From NCBI GenBank assembly GCA_902784805.1, contig CACZWD010000016.1, positions 16,754-80,753 on the forward strand: DNA of 64,000 nucleotides, read 5' to 3'. The position numbers were made by a program, and so were the translations under genes. The DNA is from an uncultured Ruminococcus sp. GTDB lineage: Bacteria > Bacillota > Clostridia > RUG12999. This document shows, one piece after another, positions 2,492 through 8,872 of the stretch. Position 1 is the first letter of the stretch; every line of letters starts with the position of its first letter. The notes beneath the pieces are model-generated. The model was not told the DNA's origin. It searched no databases and worked only from the letters and a program-made list of their open reading frames with translations.

Positions 2492-3676
2492 ATGAATAAA
2501 AGAACAATATATTTTGACCATGCGGCAACTACGCCGGTTAAGCCTGAAGTGCTTGCGGCGATGTTGCCTTATTTTGTTGAGCACTATGGAAATCCTTCAT
2601 CAATCTACGGTATCGGGAGAGATAACCGTGAAGCGGTAAATGCCGCAAGAGAAAAAATTGCCGCGGCAATCGGCGCGAAAGCAAACGAAATATATTTTAC
2701 AGGCTGCGGAACAGAGGCGGATAACTGGGCAATAAAAGGTACGGCGCGCGCGTATAAGGATAGGGGAAGGCACATTATTACATCGGCAATTGAGCATCAC
2801 GCCGTGCTTCACACCTGCGCGGCTCTTGAAAAAGAAGGCTTTGAGGTAACATATATAAAGCCCGATGAATACGGAATTATAAGTCCGGAGGACGTTGAAA
2901 AAGCGATTCGCCCCGATACCGTGCTTATCAGTATTATGTTTGCGAATAATGAAATCGGCACGGTGCAGGATATTGCGGCGATAGGTGAAATCGCGAAAGC
3001 GCATAAAATTGTTTTTCATACCGACGCGGTTCAGGCGGCGGGAGCGCTTAAAATTGACGTTAAGGAAATGAATATTGATATGATGTCAATGTCGGCGCAT
3101 AAGCTTTACGGGCCAAAAGGCGTGGGAGCGCTTTATATACGCTCCGGTGTACGTCCCGATATTTTCCTTGACGGCGGAGCGCAGGAACGCGGCAGGCGGG
3201 GCGGTACGGAAAATGTTGCGGGCATTGTGGGCTTTGCAAAGGCAATGGAAATCGCAATGGAAGGTATTGAAGAAAAAGCGGCGTATATTTCCACAATGAG
3301 AGATTATCTTATTGAAAAAATTGAGGAAAAAATCCCTTATATAAAACTGAACGGTCACAGAACACAGCGTCTGCCGAATAATGTCAATTTTTCATTTAAA
3401 TTTATTGAAGGCGAAGCCTTGCTTTTAAGCCTTGATTTTAAAGGAATTGCGGCATCAAGCGGTTCTGCCTGCACGTCAGGCTCTCTTGACCCGTCACACG
3501 TGCTGCTTGCAATAGGGCTTCCGCACGAAATTGCCCACGGCTCGCTCCGTCTTACGATAGGCGAAGAAACCACTATGGAGGATATTGATTATGTCGTGGA
3601 AAGCCTTGTTGAAATTGTCGATAGATTAAGAAAAATGTCACCTCTTTATGAAGAAGTAATTAAAAATAAAGCGTAA
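2492..3676 (+). CDS. nifS: cysteine desulfurase (NifS/IscS class)
   Basis: PLP-dependent class V aminotransferase pattern (SAHKLYGPKG, SSGSACTSG). The ATG at 2492 has better RBS spacing than the one at 2483. Confidence 0.9.
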   Translation: MNKRTIYFDHAATTPVKPEVLAAMLPYFVEHYGNPSSIYGIGRDNREAVNAAREKIAAAIGAKANEIYFTGCGTEADNWAIKGTARAYKDRGRHIITSAIEHHAVLHTCAALEKEGFEVTYIKPDEYGIISPEDVEKAIRPDTVLISIMFANNEIGTVQDIAAIGEIAKAHKIVFHTDAVQAAGALKIDVKEMNIDMMSMSAHKLYGPKGVGALYIRSGVRPDIFLDGGAQERGRRGGTENVAGIVGFAKAMEIAMEGIEEKAAYISTMRDYLIEKIEEKIPYIKLNGHRTQRLPNNVNFSFKFIEGEALLLSLDFKGIAASSGSACTSGSLDPSHVLLAIGLPHEIAHGSLRLTIGEETTMEDIDYVVESLVEIVDRLRKMSPLYEEVIKNKA

Positions 3677-3691
3677 AAGGAGAGCAAAAAA

Positions 3692-4123
3692 ATGTATTCC
3701 GAAAAAGTTATGGAAGAATTTAACAATCCCTCGAATGTCGGAGAGATAGAAAACGCGGATGCCGTAGGTGAAGTGGGAAACGCAGTCTGCGGCGATATAA
3801 TGAAAATATATATGAAAATAGATGACGATATCATAACCGATATAAAATTTAAAACCTTCGGCTGCGGAGCGGCAATAGCGACGAGCTCTATGGCAACGAA
3901 GCTTGTAAAAGGCAAGTCGGTTTTTGAGGCTATGAAGCTTACGAATAAAGAGGTTATGGATAAGCTCGGCGGCTTACCTCCTCAAAAAATACATTGCAGC
4001 GTGCTTGCGGAAGAAGCAATCGCCGCCGCTCTTACAAATTATTTTGAAAAAACCGGAAGGGAGCTTCCGGAAGAGCTTGTCGGCAAATGTAAAGGAAACT
4101 GCGAAGCGTGCCACAGGCATTGA
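3692..4123 (+). CDS. nifU: Fe-S cluster assembly scaffold NifU/IscU
   Basis: 143 aa. NAVCGD, FKTFGCGAAIA and IHCSVLA are the three conserved Cys motifs. Confidence 0.9.
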   Translation: MYSEKVMEEFNNPSNVGEIENADAVGEVGNAVCGDIMKIYMKIDDDIITDIKFKTFGCGAAIATSSMATKLVKGKSVFEAMKLTNKEVMDKLGGLPPQKIHCSVLAEEAIAAALTNYFEKTGRELPEELVGKCKGNCEACHRH

Positions 4124-4208
4124 TTTTCCTGAAAACCGCGCCGCTTCGCTGTTAAAACTCTCCTTAGTTTTAAAAAATTAAAAAAAATGAAAAAATTTGT
4201 TAAAATTC

Positions 4209-4237
4209 TTGACATTTACGGCTTTTGGTGGTATAAT
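4209..4237 (+). promoter_or_regulatory. sigma-A promoter with extended -10, driving the leader and ilvE
   Basis: ttgaca (4209-4214), 17-nt spacer, tgg-tataat (4229-4237). Confidence 0.55.
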
Positions 4238-4276
4238 AGATAAAGTATTAATTATTTTGTTAAGGAGTAAACAAAA

Positions 4277-4384
4277 ATGCTTGCAATCGCTTCTATTAAT
4301 GTCATAGCCCTTGCAGTCGTGATATTCGTGAGCCTGATTATTAAGGTCGTGACGAATACCACTGCGAGTTATGCGCTTTTATAG
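4277..4384 (+). CDS. candidate branched-chain amino acid leader peptide (35 aa, MLAIASINVIALAVVIFVSLIIKVVTNTTASYALL)
   Basis: RBS aaggag lies 8 nt upstream. 17 of 35 codons are Ile/Val/Leu. It sits between a promoter and an intrinsic terminator directly upstream of ilvE. It falls below the 60-aa cutoff of the ORF track. Confidence 0.5.
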   Translation: MLAIASINVIALAVVIFVSLIIKVVTNTTASYALL

Positions 4385-4430
4385 AAGATAGTGAATTTGC
4401 TTTTTTCGCATTTTTATTTCTGTCTTTACA

Positions 4431-4461
4431 GCCCGTAACCGCATGGGGTTACGGGTTTTTT
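4431..4461 (+). terminator. intrinsic terminator (attenuator) between the leader ORF and ilvE
   Basis: cccgtaacc / gcatg / ggttacggg, followed by tttttt. Confidence 0.7.
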
Positions 4462-4501
4462 AAATGTAAATAATAAAAATTTTTATAAAGGAGTTTTTAA
4501 A

Positions 4502-5566
4502 ATGGACATCAGAATTGAAAAGACAAAATCACCAAAACAAATTCCGGACTTTAAAGGTCCTCTCGGCTTCGGTAAAATTTTCACTGACCATATGTTCGTT
4601 ATGAACTATACCGAGGGTAAAGGCTGGCATGACGCGAGAGTCATTCCTTATCAGAATCTTTCTCTTTCGCCGGCAAGTATGGTTTTCCATTACGGACAGG
4701 AAATGTTTGAGGGTTTAAAAGCTTATAAGGGAAAAGACGGCAAGGTAAGGCTTTTCCGTCCCGATATGAACGCGAAAAGAGCAAACGCTTCAAATGACAG
4801 ACTTTGCATACCGAGAATCCCGGAGGAGGATTTCGTACAGGCTGTTAAAACTGTTGTTGAGGTTGACAGCGATTGGGTTCCGACAGAGCCCGGAACATCG
4901 CTTTATGTTCGTCCCTTTGTTATCGCGACAGACGATTTTCTTGGTGTTGCGCCTTCAAAAACCTATCTTTTCATAATTATACTTTCTCCGAGCGGCGCTT
5001 ATTACTCAAGCGGTCTTGCGCCTGTCGGCATATGGATTGAGGACGAGTATGTAAGAGCCGTAAGAGGCGGTATAGGCTTCGCTAAAACAGGCGGCAACTA
5101 CGCGGCGAGCCTTGCGGCGCAGGTTAAGGCTCATGACGACGGATATTCTCAGGTACTTTGGCTTGACGGTGTTGAGCGTAAGTATATTGAAGAAGTCGGC
5201 GCTATGAATATCTTCTTCAAAATTAACGGCAAAATTGTTACTCCCATGCTCAGTGGAAGTATCTTGCCCGGTATAACAAGAAATTCCGTTATAAATGTAT
5301 GTAAGAGCTGGGGCTACGAGGTTGAGGAAAGAAAAATATCCGTGGACGAGCTTATCGCCGCGCAGAAGTCCGGCGCTCTTGAAGAAGTTTTCGGAACAGG
5401 CACGGCTGCGGTTATTTCACCTGTCGGCAAGCTTCGTTATAAAGACGATGTTATGACGATAAACGGCGGAGATATAGGACCTGTAAGCCAAAAGCTTTAT
5501 GATACCATAACAGGGCTTCAGAACGGAACTCTTGAAGATACCTTCGGCTGGACGGTAACGCTTTAA
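4502..5566 (+). CDS. ilvE: branched-chain amino acid aminotransferase
   Basis: 354 aa class IV aminotransferase (FEGLKAY, GGNYAASL, EVGAMNIFF, PGITR). Confidence 0.9.
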   Translation: MDIRIEKTKSPKQIPDFKGPLGFGKIFTDHMFVMNYTEGKGWHDARVIPYQNLSLSPASMVFHYGQEMFEGLKAYKGKDGKVRLFRPDMNAKRANASNDRLCIPRIPEEDFVQAVKTVVEVDSDWVPTEPGTSLYVRPFVIATDDFLGVAPSKTYLFIIILSPSGAYYSSGLAPVGIWIEDEYVRAVRGGIGFAKTGGNYAASLAAQVKAHDDGYSQVLWLDGVERKYIEEVGAMNIFFKINGKIVTPMLSGSILPGITRNSVINVCKSWGYEVEERKISVDELIAAQKSGALEEVFGTGTAAVISPVGKLRYKDDVMTINGGDIGPVSQKLYDTITGLQNGTLEDTFGWTVTL

Positions 5567-5570
5567 GATT

Positions 5571-6260
5571 ATGAAAGAAGTTTTAACAGATAAAAGAATT
5601 GTGGTTTTCGCGGGACATTACGGCAGCGGAAAAACGAACATTGCGGTCAACTACGCGCTTGCGCTTCGTGAAAAGTATCCCGGAAAAGCTGTTTCGCTTG
5701 CGGACCTTGATATTGTAAATCCGTATTTCCGGACAAAAGACAGCGCTGATGTGTTGCGTGATAACGGCATAAGGCTTATTTCTTCCGAATTCGCGAATTC
5801 AAATGTGGATTTGCCCGCGCTTCCGCCCGACACCTATGCTATTTTAGATAACAAAGATATGCTTGGAGTTATAGACGTCGGCGGTGATGACAGGGGGGCT
5901 CTTGCCCTTGGCAGATATACGCCCGGCATTTTGGAGGACGGCAGCTACGATTTTATTTTTGTGATAAACAAATACCGCCCGCTTACGGGAACTCCTGAAG
6001 ATACTGCCGAAATTATGCGTGAAATCGAGCAGGCTGCGGGAATGAGGTTTACAGGCATCGCAAATAACTCAAATCTTGGCGATATAACAACGGCAAATGA
6101 TGTTTTATCGGCTGTGCCTTATGCGGAGAAGGTCGCAGAAATAACAGGGCTTGAAATAAAGATGACAACGGTAAAAAAATCTCTTGAAGCCGAGCTTCAG
6201 GGTAAAATTTATAAACTTGCGCCCATGACGCTTTACGTAAAACAGTCTTGGGATGCTTAA
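5571..6260 (+). CDS. P-loop NTPase of unknown function (MinD/CooC-like fold)
   Basis: Walker A motif GHYGSGKT near the N-terminus and DVGGD downstream. It is tightly packed between ilvE and the oxidoreductase genes. Confidence 0.55.
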   Translation: MKEVLTDKRIVVFAGHYGSGKTNIAVNYALALREKYPGKAVSLADLDIVNPYFRTKDSADVLRDNGIRLISSEFANSNVDLPALPPDTYAILDNKDMLGVIDVGGDDRGALALGRYTPGILEDGSYDFIFVINKYRPLTGTPEDTAEIMREIEQAAGMRFTGIANNSNLGDITTANDVLSAVPYAEKVAEITGLEIKMTTVKKSLEAELQGKIYKLAPMTLYVKQSWDA

Positions 6261-6280
6261 GAAAGGAACTGATTTATACT

Positions 6281-6487
6281 ATGGCAAAACCTATCTTTAA
6301 CAAAGATATTTGCAAAGGCTGCGGTTTATGCGTTACAGTATGTCCCAAAGGCATAGTTGCGCTCGCGACCGATGAAATCAACATTAAGGGCTATCACCCT
6401 GCGGGTGTTACCGATGAGGATAAATGTATAGGCTGCGCTTTTTGCGCAACTATGTGTCCCGATTGTGTAATAACCGTTGAAAAATAA
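6281..6487 (+). CDS. 2-oxoacid:ferredoxin oxidoreductase delta subunit (2x[4Fe-4S] ferredoxin)
   Basis: Two CxxCxxCxxxCP motifs (CKGCGLCVTVCP, CIGCAFCATMCP). The ATG at 6281 has RBS gaaagga. Confidence 0.8.
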   Translation: MAKPIFNKDICKGCGLCVTVCPKGIVALATDEINIKGYHPAGVTDEDKCIGCAFCATMCPDCVITVEK

Positions 6488-6506
6488 GAAAGAGAGGAAT
6501 GAAATA

Positions 6507-7568
6507 ATGAGTCATGAAAAAGTTTTGATGAAGGGCAACGAAGCTCTGGCGGAAGCCGCTATTATGGCGGGCTGTCACCACTATTTCGGTTACCCTATTA
6601 CGCCGCAGACTGAAGTTGCGGCTTATATGTCAAAGAGGATGCCGAAAATTGACGGCGGCGTGTTTTTACAGGCTGAAAGCGAAATTGCAGCAATTAATAT
6701 GGTAATAGGCGTCGCGTCAACGGGAAAGAGAGTTATGACTTCAAGCTCAAGCCCGGGCATCTCACTTAAGAGTGAAGGTCTTTCTTATCTTGCGGGCTGT
6801 GACCTTCCGGCGCTTGTTGTAAACGTTCAGCGCGGCGGTCCCGGTCTCGGCGGTATTCAGCCTTCACAGTCGGATTATTTCCATGCCACAAGGGGCGCCG
6901 GTCATGGCGATTTTCATATGATAGTCCTTGCTCCAGATTCCGTTCAGGAAATGGTAAGCCTTGTTTTCCACGGCTTTGACCTTGCGGAAAAATACAGAAT
7001 GACAACGATGATTCTTTCGGACGGTACAATGGGACAAATGATGGAACCCGTAAGCCTTGATATGGGCGAAATCAAGCAGTATGATAAACCGTGGGCACTT
7101 ACGGGCACAAAATGCGAAAGAAAGCCGAATATTGTAAATTCGCTTTATCTTCAGCCCGAAGAACTTGAAAAGCGCAATTTTGAAAGATATGAAAAATATA
7201 AGCTCATTGAAGAAACGGAGCCTATGTTTGAAGAATATAAAATGGAGGACGCAGAGGTTTGCATAGCCGCTTTCGGCGTTGCGGCGCGTGTTTCGCAAAA
7301 TGCAATTGATGAAGCAAGAAAGCAGGGAATAAAGGTCGGTATGATAAGACCTATTACTCTTTGGCCCTTCCCGAAAAAGGCTTTTGCTTCAGCGGCAGAG
7401 AAAGTTAAAAGCTTTGTTTCGGTTGAGCTTTCTATGGGTCAGATGGTTGAGGATATTGAGCTCAGCGTACGCTGCAAACGCCCCGTGCTTCTTTGCAACA
7501 GAGCCGGCGGTATGATTCCGACAACGCAGAACGTGCTTGATAAAATTATTGAAGCTTCAAAGCTTTAA
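6507..7568 (+). CDS. 2-oxoacid (2-ketoisovalerate/2-oxoglutarate):ferredoxin oxidoreductase alpha subunit
   Basis: The N-terminus (KGNEALAEAAIMAGC..YFGYPITPQTE) is typical of KorA/VorA. Confidence 0.85.
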   Translation: MSHEKVLMKGNEALAEAAIMAGCHHYFGYPITPQTEVAAYMSKRMPKIDGGVFLQAESEIAAINMVIGVASTGKRVMTSSSSPGISLKSEGLSYLAGCDLPALVVNVQRGGPGLGGIQPSQSDYFHATRGAGHGDFHMIVLAPDSVQEMVSLVFHGFDLAEKYRMTTMILSDGTMGQMMEPVSLDMGEIKQYDKPWALTGTKCERKPNIVNSLYLQPEELEKRNFERYEKYKLIEETEPMFEEYKMEDAEVCIAAFGVAARVSQNAIDEARKQGIKVGMIRPITLWPFPKKAFASAAEKVKSFVSVELSMGQMVEDIELSVRCKRPVLLCNRAGGMIPTTQNVLDKIIEASKL

Positions 7569-7590
7569 GGAAAGGAAAGGGTTAAATAAA

Positions 7591-8340
7591 ATGATAGTAT
7601 TTGAAAAACCAAAAGCGCTGACAGACGCCGTGCTTCATTACTGTCCGGGCTGCACACACGGTATAATTCACCGTCTTGTGGCAGAAGCAATTGACGACCT
7701 TGGTATTCAGGGAAGGACAATCGGCGTAGCATCGGTAGGCTGTTCGGTTATGGCATATAATTATTTTGATGTTGATATGGTACAGGCGGCTCACGGACGC
7801 GCTCCGGCGGTAGCAACGGGCGTTAAGCGCTCCGACCCGAATAATATTGTGTTTACTTATCAGGGCGACGGCGACCTTGCGGCTATCGGAACGGCGGAAA
7901 CGGTTCATTCCGCAGCAAGAGGCGAAAACATTACCGTTATTTTCGTAAACAACGCGATTTACGGTATGACGGGCGGTCAAATGGCACCCACAACGCTTCC
8001 GGGACAGGTTACGCAGACTTCGCCATACGGCAGAGATGTTAAAACTGTCGGATATCCCGTAAAAATATGTGAAATGCTTTCACAGCTTGACGGCGCGGCA
8101 TATCTTGAAAGAGTAGCGGTAAACAATGTTAAAAATATTAAAAACGCGAAAAAAGCTATTAAAAAAGCGTTTCAGAATCAGGTTGAGGGCAAAGGCTTTT
8201 CGCTTATAGAGGTTGTTTCAACCTGCCCGACAAACTGGGGACTTCCACCCGTTAAGGCGCTCGAATGGCTTGAAGAAAATATGATTCCGTATTATCCTCT
8301 CGGAGTTTATAAGGATAAATACGCTGAGGAGGTAAAGTAA
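7591..8340 (+). CDS. 2-oxoacid:ferredoxin oxidoreductase beta subunit (TPP-binding)
   Basis: CPGCTHG and [20 protein letters not shown] are TPP motifs. Confidence 0.85.
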
Positions 8341-8341
8341 T

Positions 8342-8872
8342 ATGACAACACAGATACTTATTGCAGGCTTCGGCGGACAGGGAATACTTTTTTCGGGTAA
8401 ATTTCTCGCATATGAAGGCTTGATTGAAGGTAAGGAGCTTAGCTGGCTTCCTTCATACGGTCCCGAAATGCGCGGCGGCACAGCAAATTGCAGCGTTATT
8501 TTAAGCGATACAAAGGTAGGCTCGCCGATTGTGCTTAATCCGGACGTGCTTATCGCAATGAACGGTCCCTCGCTCGATAAATACGAGAATGAAACCGTCA
8601 GCGGCGGCAAAATTTTTGTTGACAGCTCACTTATCACGAGAAAGGTTGAAAGAAGCGACGTTGAAGCTTATTATATACCGGCGACAAAAATGGCTTCCGA
8701 CGAAGGGCTTACAGGTCTTGCGAATATGATTATACTTGGGCACGCTATTAAAAAAGCGAATCTTGTGCCGTATGAAAACATTGAAAAGGCAATGAAAAAG
8801 CTTGTTCCGCCCAAAAAGCAGCACCTTTTGGAGCCTAATCTTCGCGCGATTGAGCTTGGTTATAATTATTAA
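8342..8872 (+). CDS. 2-oxoacid:ferredoxin oxidoreductase gamma subunit
   Basis: [13 protein letters not shown] and YGPEMRGG are gamma-subunit motifs. Confidence 0.85.

Follow-up and report, generated by a model that had tools for sequence, protein, structure and literature searches.

A Predicted Leader-Peptide Attenuator Upstream of ilvE

The subject of this analysis is the region directly upstream of ilvE (positions 4209-4461) in a 64,000-nucleotide (nt) stretch of DNA from an uncultured Ruminococcus sp. (contig CACZWD010000016.1, positions 16,754 to 80,753). This whole stretch is called the window, and positions are counted from its first letter. The region is likely to serve as a ribosome-mediated, leader-peptide attenuator of transcription, which would sense charged isoleucine, valine and leucine tRNA and gate an operon composed of ilvE, a P-loop NTPase gene and the genes for a four-subunit 2-oxoacid:ferredoxin oxidoreductase. 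The analysis revealed a short open reading frame (ORF) with its own ribosome binding site (RBS), a cluster of codons for the branched-chain amino acids (BCAA) Ile, Val and Leu, a terminator without a promoter behind it, an antiterminator, and an anti-antiterminator located under the Val/Ile codon run. A first-pass annotation of the window had already proposed a leader-peptide attenuator in control of ilvE. This proposal gained support from the conservation of the small ORF and its BCAA codons in related genomes and from an RNA structure that competes with the terminator.

The genome harboring the window was assembled from a metagenome (1.67 Mb, 84% complete) and contains the element as a single copy. 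For comparison, the regions upstream of ilvE orthologues were used. The leader family of the genus consists of the window's genome and three further species, designated G004, G001, and G003. At a total of 27 compared ilvE loci, a BCAA-rich leader was only found where ilvE heads the operon of ilvE, P-loop NTPase, and oxidoreductase genes, and it was absent where ilvE stood alone or behind another gene.

Organization of the Leader

All features of the window described here are encoded on the plus strand. The leader promoter (4209-4237) is composed of the -35 box TTGACA (4209-4214), a 17-nt spacer with a TG, and the -10 box TATAAT (4232-4237). It agrees with the sigma-70-type consensus at 12 of 12 positions and is the sole perfect site between 3500 and 6000. 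The transcript start is predicted around position 4244, which leaves approximately 33 nt to the ATG of the leader ORF at 4277. The RBS AAGGAG (4262-4267) is found 9 nt 5' of this ATG. In G004, G001, and G003 a TTGACA and a TATAAT-like box are also present 5' of the leader, and the RBS has a counterpart, GGGAG or AAGGAG, at the same place. A candidate CodY box just before the -35 box (4193-4207, AAATTTGTTAAAATT) was rejected. With its 3 mismatches it is of a kind that the window contains at chance frequency (14 found against 12 expected), and the relatives show no conservation of the site.

The leader ORF (4277-4384, stop codon at 4382) comprises 35 codons with the sequence MLAIASINVIALAVVIFVSLIIKVVTNTTASYALL. 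The first-pass annotation had described the promoter, the well-placed RBS, and this ORF, all of which were found again at the same coordinates. The recount of its Ile/Val/Leu codons likewise gave 17 of 35, with the densest run, 13 of 17 codons, at 4301-4351 (VIALAVVIFVSLIIKVV), where it had been placed before. This run is taken as the putative regulatory codon run. The encoded peptide found no match in Pfam and shows one hydrophobic stretch resembling a membrane helix.

Behind the ORF follows the intrinsic terminator, likewise recognized at first reading. Its stem (4430-4457) consists of 11 pairs, 6 of them G-C, with a 6-nt loop, and a six-T run extends from 4456 to 4461. The run ends 40 nt before the ATG of ilvE (4502). 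No promoter-like site was observed between terminator and ilvE (4458-4501), and the same holds true for this interval in G001. Folding of the leader transcript (4244-4470) yielded a z-score of -4.9 compared to dinucleotide shuffles.

Mutually Exclusive RNA Pairings and the Proposed Mechanism

Four regions of the leader RNA were distinguished. In minimum-energy folds region 1 (4303-4330, with the core GUGAUAUUCGU at 4319-4329) provides the 5' strand of the anti-antiterminator. Region 2 (4352-4378) pairs with region 1 via 4352-4366 and contains the segment 4359-4377 (CCACUGCGAGUUAUGCGCU), which pairs with region 3 as antiterminator. Together with 4352-4358 the same segment folds back upstream onto the Val/Ile codon run at 4303-4330. 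An imperfect hairpin inside the ORF had been noted before at about 4313-4366, and it folds with -18.8 kcal/mol. Region 3 (4430-4446) is formed by the 5' arm (4430-4440) and the loop (4441-4446) of the terminator and has region 2 and region 4 as alternative partners. Region 4 (4447-4461) contains the terminator 3' arm (4447-4457) and the run of six U at 4456-4461, the first two of which are located inside the arm. Between regions 2 and 3 a spacer hairpin (4386-4422; -7.3 kcal/mol) is found, which is the least well supported part of the arrangement. It stacks inside the antiterminator, is present in G004 with altered sequence, and may function as a timing spacer.

A convincing antiterminator had been missed when the sequence was inspected by eye. 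It became visible when only the RNA that exists before synthesis of the terminator 3' arm was folded. Under these conditions 4359-4377 paired with the terminator 5' arm and loop at 4430-4446 (AGCCCGUAACCGCAUGG), resulting in a structure of approximately -27 kcal/mol including the spacer hairpin. The full transcript folded into a long hairpin and a separate terminator. The energies of the helices were -24.5 kcal/mol for 1:2, -27.2 kcal/mol for 2:3 (duplex alone -17.8 kcal/mol), and -19.1 kcal/mol for 3:4. The three helices are mutually exclusive, balanced in their energies, and arranged in the classical 1:2 / 2:3 / 3:4 layout. The antiterminator pairing persisted when the RNA was kept free from 4364 or an earlier position, and it was gone when the free part of the RNA began at 4370 or later, as it would with a ribosome positioned at the stop codon (4382). 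Across the whole leader the best partner of the terminator 5' half was region 2 in all four species. By dinucleotide shuffling a partner of this quality was obtained in 4 of 1000 cases for the window, and the fractions over the four species were 4, 14, 18, and 29 per 1000.

From this organization we infer that the leader ORF is translated, that ribosomes stall on it when BCAA are scarce, and that read-through into ilvE responds to this stalling. The leader transcript would be started at approximately 4244 from the consensus promoter, and a ribosome would load at the AAGGAG and translate the ORF. With ample charged tRNA, it would pass the Val/Ile run and reach the stop codon at 4382, thereby covering region 2 (4359-4377). 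Alternatively, it would leave the RNA, and region 1 would pair again with region 2. By either route the terminator (4430-4457 plus U run) would form and transcription would end 40 nt before ilvE. With scarce charged Ile, Val, or Leu tRNA, the ribosome would stall within 4301-4351, keeping helix 1:2 open and region 2 free. Region 2 would then pair with the emerging 5' arm and loop of the terminator, no terminator would form, and RNA polymerase would enter ilvE.

Conservation and Covariation Within the Genus

In four of the five species of the genus, promoter, RBS, BCAA-rich ORF, region 2, and terminator are located directly before ilvE. The leader ORFs of the relatives are MLFTTSLNVIAYAVVIFVSLIIKVVTNTTASYALL in G004 (35 codons, 15 for Ile/Val/Leu), MRFIFSFNIIVYVVVLFICLF in G001 (21 codons, 10 for Ile/Val/Leu), and MRSLLSVNFIVVAVIVVFVNLL in G003 (22 codons, 13 for Ile/Val/Leu). 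All four species share the aligned ATG and the reading frame, which is not disrupted by an indel of 3 nt within the ORF. When the family's 25 genomes were searched with a covariance model built from the four leaders, only these four were retrieved, each as a single occurrence in its genome and each before ilvE; no member was found outside the genus in this set. A scan of the genome collection with the region 1/2 pattern likewise returned only the known members of the genus. Three pattern matches from a metagenome collection were rejected as chance, as none of them fits the covariance model.

The sequence changes point to a constraint which acts on the leader at the level of the RNA and not of the protein. 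Comparing the window's genome and G004, 66.5% of the third codon positions of ilvE are identical, while in leader codons 13-35 a single base differs (P of approximately 0.001 by a binomial estimate). In leader codons 1-12 of the same pair 11 of 36 nt are changed, causing 5 amino acid replacements. A functional membrane peptide would give the opposite pattern of conservation. The length of the ORF differs within the genus as well. Where the window has a Lys codon (AAG, 4343), G001 and G003 carry the stop codon TAA in the alignment, so the 35-codon form is a read-through extension that arose when the stop codon was lost. Region 2 (AAUAGCACUGUGNGUUAUGCC) follows the end of the ORF at a distance of 10-13 nt in these two species and is conserved nevertheless. 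The last 13 of the 35 codons thus stem from a lineage-specific stop codon loss, and codons 7-25 would form the regulatory core.

The alternative pairing opposing the terminator is kept in all four species. For the 10 alignable antiterminator pairs standard pairing was observed in 40 of 40 cells, compared to 29-49% when the partners were slid by 1-3 columns. One pair is changed on both sides from C-G to U-A, with CUGCG/CGCAG becoming CUGUG/CACAG. The 3' base of this compensatory pair sits in the terminator loop; its conservation is attributed to the antiterminator, since no other helix explains it. Two more antiterminator pairs show compatible one-sided changes. The terminator stem exhibits compensatory changes across the species, and the core of helix 1:2 is kept in all four of them in the RNAalifold consensus.

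Several rearrangements were seen around the leader in the relatives. In G004 the leader promoter is immediately preceded by a gene for an IS-type transposase (L031:2331-3308), whereas nifS and nifU occupy this place in the window. The leader of G004 is still attached to ilvE despite this upstream rearrangement, and a 22-nt insertion with a TATAAT is found between its terminator and ilvE. In G002, the fifth species of the genus, the element is absent before ilvE. At L100:880-1181 (minus strand of the locus) this genome contains an ORF of 83 codons equipped with a promoter, a strong RBS, and a terminator, together heading a larger operon with amidohydrolase-like, LeuA-like, TIM-barrel/acyl-CoA-synthetase, and ilvE genes among others. 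The 83-codon ORF starts with MRSFSFSN as do the leaders of G001 and G003 and has an Ile-rich end (LINIISIITLPIIILVVFL). The best partner of the terminator 5' arm is again found close to the 3' end of the ORF.

Other Putative Sensors Upstream of the Same Operon

The same operon was found behind two further types of leader. In the sister genus g3 it additionally includes genes for XRE/cupin and acyl-CoA synthetase at its upstream end and is headed by a T-box, whose score was 99.4 bits for G012 and 92.1 bits for G006 (threshold 93). The T-box leaders (L099:1720-1965, plus strand; L098:1092-1342, minus strand) precede the genes for XRE/cupin, acyl-CoA synthetase, ilvE, P-loop NTPase, and oxidoreductase. 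Their specifier loop reads GUCUGUAG and is atypical. Its place in the Rfam alignment makes GUA (Val) the probable specifier, with CUG and UGU as other candidates. The presence of a T-box at the equivalent place argues for control of the operon by tRNA charging. That T-boxes and leader peptides can replace each other ahead of the same genes has been documented (PMC2965389).

In genus g20, which belongs to another family, the same operon is preceded by a distinct, Ile-rich leader in at least 8 species (L045:57-259, L073:2599-2808, L075:2561-2769, L076:1260-1463, L077:1234-1434, L078:2608-2810, L081:2601-2800, L096:2633-2840). Its ORF has 35-45 codons, for example MSFAATYLIDNIIIINALIIVISIISAACCADKFSKVGC, with the core NIIII(N/S)ALII. 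The Ile codons are overlain by a hairpin (GCGCUAAU...AUUAGUGC), region 2 (UGCCGAUAAGUUUU) close to the 3' end of the ORF mimics the terminator 3' arm, and the terminator (AAAGCUUACGG...CCGUAAGCUUUUU) is located approximately 40 nt before ilvE. In 8 of 8 leaders the terminator 5' half had its best partner at the homologous site. Pairing of helix 1:2 and of the terminator is complete (100%) and includes three compensatory pairs (3 of 500 shuffles). Region 1 coincides exactly with the Ile/Val/Leu run in both of the independent leader families. This independent recurrence of the design in g20 supports the attenuator mechanism.

One further g20 species, G069, has kept promoter, RBS, region 2, and terminator (L074, approximately 180 to 40 nt before ilvE). 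Its ORF (MNAACFFKQHFVYVVPRSFKSRL) is without the run of Ile codons, helix 1:2 has been lost as well, and this leader may represent a degenerate or constitutive variant.

Evaluation of the Model and of Alternative Explanations

We are aware of several observations which weigh against leader-peptide attenuation. When the full transcript was folded at equilibrium with a ribosome footprint placed at every codon, the terminator always won. Before the 3' arm was made, the antiterminator won even without a ribosome, and the terminator 5' arm was sequestered at almost every position of the footprint. Equilibrium folds thus do not discriminate, so the model depends on the order of folding during transcription, and reliance was placed on conservation and covariation. 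The covariation of the antiterminator is consistent but thin. A single compensatory pair is specific to it, and the column-shuffle control was not significant (87 of 500) with four sequences that represent effectively three lineages. Moreover, by the position of their stop codons, a ribosome at the end of the ORF in G001 and G003 would not cover the antiterminator strand, so that termination in these species must rely on release of the ribosome and renewed pairing of regions 1 and 2. Finally, a hydrophobic peptide of 21-35 residues looks like a small membrane peptide, and composition alone cannot separate the two readings.

Among the alternatives, a switch between terminator and antiterminator set by an RNA-binding protein, a tRNA, or a small ligand comes first, although we consider it unlikely. 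The ORF would then be incidental or an aid in unfolding the RNA. Regions 1 and 2 and the loop are indeed conserved as RNA, the equilibrium folds by themselves need no ribosome, and in the sister genus an RNA-only sensor, the T-box, is found on the same operon. However, the ATG, the RBS, and the frame are kept in all four species, even across the 3-nt indel, and the Ile/Val/Leu run covers region 1 in both leader families. Neither a conserved unpaired pocket nor a repeated protein-binding motif was seen. The region 3600-5000 was also scanned with all 4227 families of Rfam 15, including rli60 and T-box, at E-values up to 10, and no T-box, riboswitch, or known leader came near threshold. The best scores, IS128 with 23.5 bits (threshold 80) and rli60 with 20.4 bits (threshold 60), were both obtained on the minus strand, and the best matches on the plus strand remained far under threshold. 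T-boxes are characterized by a stem I that carries the specifier loop and by the T-box sequence conserved in the bulge of the antiterminator. For the T-box (RF00230) neither a match nor a motif was found in this region at E-values up to 10, while the same scan detected the T-boxes in G012 and G006.

Somewhat less probable still is a self-contained gene for a small hydrophobic membrane peptide without regulatory meaning of its position, in which case ilvE would be expressed by leaky read-through or from an unrecognised promoter. The membrane-helix-like stretch of the peptide, the strong promoter and strong terminator of its own, and the 83-codon relative with two hydrophobic stretches in G002 would agree with such a gene. 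The peptide itself, however, is poorly conserved, as seen from the replacements in its first 12 codons between two close species, and belongs to no Pfam family. Its C-terminal 13 residues are absent in G001 and G003, while region 2 is conserved there outside of the ORF. Region 2 moreover shows complementarity to the terminator, and covariation links it to the terminator loop. Furthermore, the single-copy unit is always found at the head of the ilvE operon and is missing where ilvE is not the head, and no promoter-like site follows the terminator.

A type I toxin-antitoxin locus, in which 5'-3' pairing would conceal the RBS on the mRNA of a small hydrophobic toxin and an antisense RNA would exert control, is highly improbable: the full-length fold of the window does pair RBS and start codon with 4400-4427 in a long hairpin as in toxin mRNAs, but this pairing is not kept in G004, G001, and G003 and was treated as incidental for this reason, no minus-strand promoter-like site was seen across 4250-4470, the locus is single-copy where such loci are often multi-copy per genome, the peptide is without the charged tail usual for such toxins, and the linkage to ilvE is strict.

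Relation to Known Attenuators

Leader-peptide attenuation of BCAA genes is known from the enterobacterial leaders ilvL of ilvGMEDA and ivbL of ilvBN. The window shares with both a short ORF close to the promoter with many Ile/Val/Leu codons, a set of overlapping hairpins (1:2, 2:3, and 3:4), an intrinsic terminator before BCAA genes, and, as proposed here, sensing by a stalled ribosome. Mechanism and architecture would also match the classical trp attenuator. In contrast to ilvL and ivbL, which have been cited as BCAA-rich leader peptides (PMC5794164), the leader of the window lies in an uncultured rumen genus of the Clostridia, shows no sequence similarity to them, and has no Rfam match. It precedes an operon of ilvE and 2-oxoacid:ferredoxin oxidoreductase genes instead of the acetolactate synthase pathway, and its ORF crosses region 2 and stops just after it.

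The first-pass annotation had considered such an attenuator unusual for Firmicutes. This holds for Clostridia and for the operon concerned, but not for the phylum, since precedents exist in Bacilli. The 13-residue BCAA leader of Rli60 in Listeria monocytogenes was tested by mutants in start codon, RBS, and terminator (PMC5864092), and for the ilvD leader of Staphylococcus aureus a 26-residue BCAA attenuator peptide was proposed with genetic support (PMC5794164). As in the window, a BCAA-rich peptide is followed by terminator and antiterminator hairpins. Both leaders precede the ilvD gene of an ilv-leu operon and work in combination with CodY, whereas the sequence of the Clostridia leader is unrelated and its CodY-box-like match remained at chance level. 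For the ilvBNC leader of Corynebacterium and the ilvB-II motif, a conserved upstream ORF and a multi-hairpin attenuator model are reported (PMC10272879, PMC11857589). The likeness lies in a Gram-positive BCAA operon with an upstream ORF and a multi-hairpin attenuator. Phylum and operon are different, and the sequence relation was judged by the negative Rfam scan. With the T-box (RF00230) the window has in common that amino acid genes are gated by a terminator/antiterminator choice reporting tRNA charging, but a translating ribosome would be used for sensing in place of direct tRNA binding. Judged by these sequence comparisons, the leader would represent a family uncatalogued in Rfam of an already known attenuator type. 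Leader-peptide attenuation, known from Proteobacteria, Actinobacteria, and a few Bacilli, would thereby also be extended to rumen Clostridia that are uncultured, and its targets to a new type of operon. Within the genus, the ORF, which had ended ahead of region 2, came to end behind it once the stop codon was lost, and this offers a natural experiment in attenuator design. For annotation, the small ORF is better termed a putative leader peptide than a hypothetical membrane protein.

The Downstream Operon and Its Possible Function

The operon behind the leader starts with ilvE (4502-5566), encoding a class IV aminotransferase, followed by the P-loop NTPase gene (5571-6260; weak Pfam matches, ParA/NUBPL-type) and the genes for the 2x[4Fe-4S] ferredoxin subunit (6281-6487) and the alpha (6507-7568), beta (7594-8340), and gamma (8342-8872) subunits of the 2-oxoacid:ferredoxin oxidoreductase. 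The genes after ilvE (5571-8872) are separated by short gaps or overlap and follow in the same order in every leader-bearing genome.

A gene of the IlvD family (PF00920) is absent from 8 of the 9 genomes carrying the operon. This scarcity fits organisms which do not make BCAA de novo. An operon switched on by a shortage of charged Ile, Val, or Leu tRNA, in genomes mostly without a dihydroxy-acid dehydratase gene, would most simply supply BCAA. This would support the assignment of ilvE and the oxidoreductase to a salvage of branched acids to amino acids, with relevance for the nitrogen economy of the rumen. Val, Ile, and Leu can be formed from branched short-chain fatty acids by reductive carboxylation, as known from physiology. 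To our knowledge no genes have been firmly assigned to this route. We tentatively suggest, with somewhat more doubt than confidence, that at least three starvation sensors, the leader among them, are used interchangeably before the same operon in uncultured Clostridia of rumen and gut, namely the Val/Ile-rich leader of the window's genus, the Ile-rich leader of g20, and the T-box of g3, and that these sensors mark the operon as this route for rebuilding BCAA. If true, the codon composition of a leader would tell to which amino acid each lineage is tuned.

The single PF00920 gene of the window's genome (G000) was rejected as ilvD of an ilv pathway, as it adjoins genes for a KDPG aldolase and a short-chain dehydrogenase; it probably encodes a sugar-acid dehydratase. 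It is part of a nine-gene cluster on the minus strand (contig C3, L101:4843-15398), which besides these two genes includes those for an acetate-kinase-family protein, AllG/AllH-like proteins, a CoA ligase, and a fumarate-reductase-like flavoprotein. The cluster looks like an acid-sugar or related catabolic cluster and not like an ilv operon.

In every genome with the operon, the P-loop NTPase gene separates ilvE from the genes of the oxidoreductase. Its divergence is much more rapid than that of ilvE, with 84% versus 98.6% identity between the window's genome and G004.

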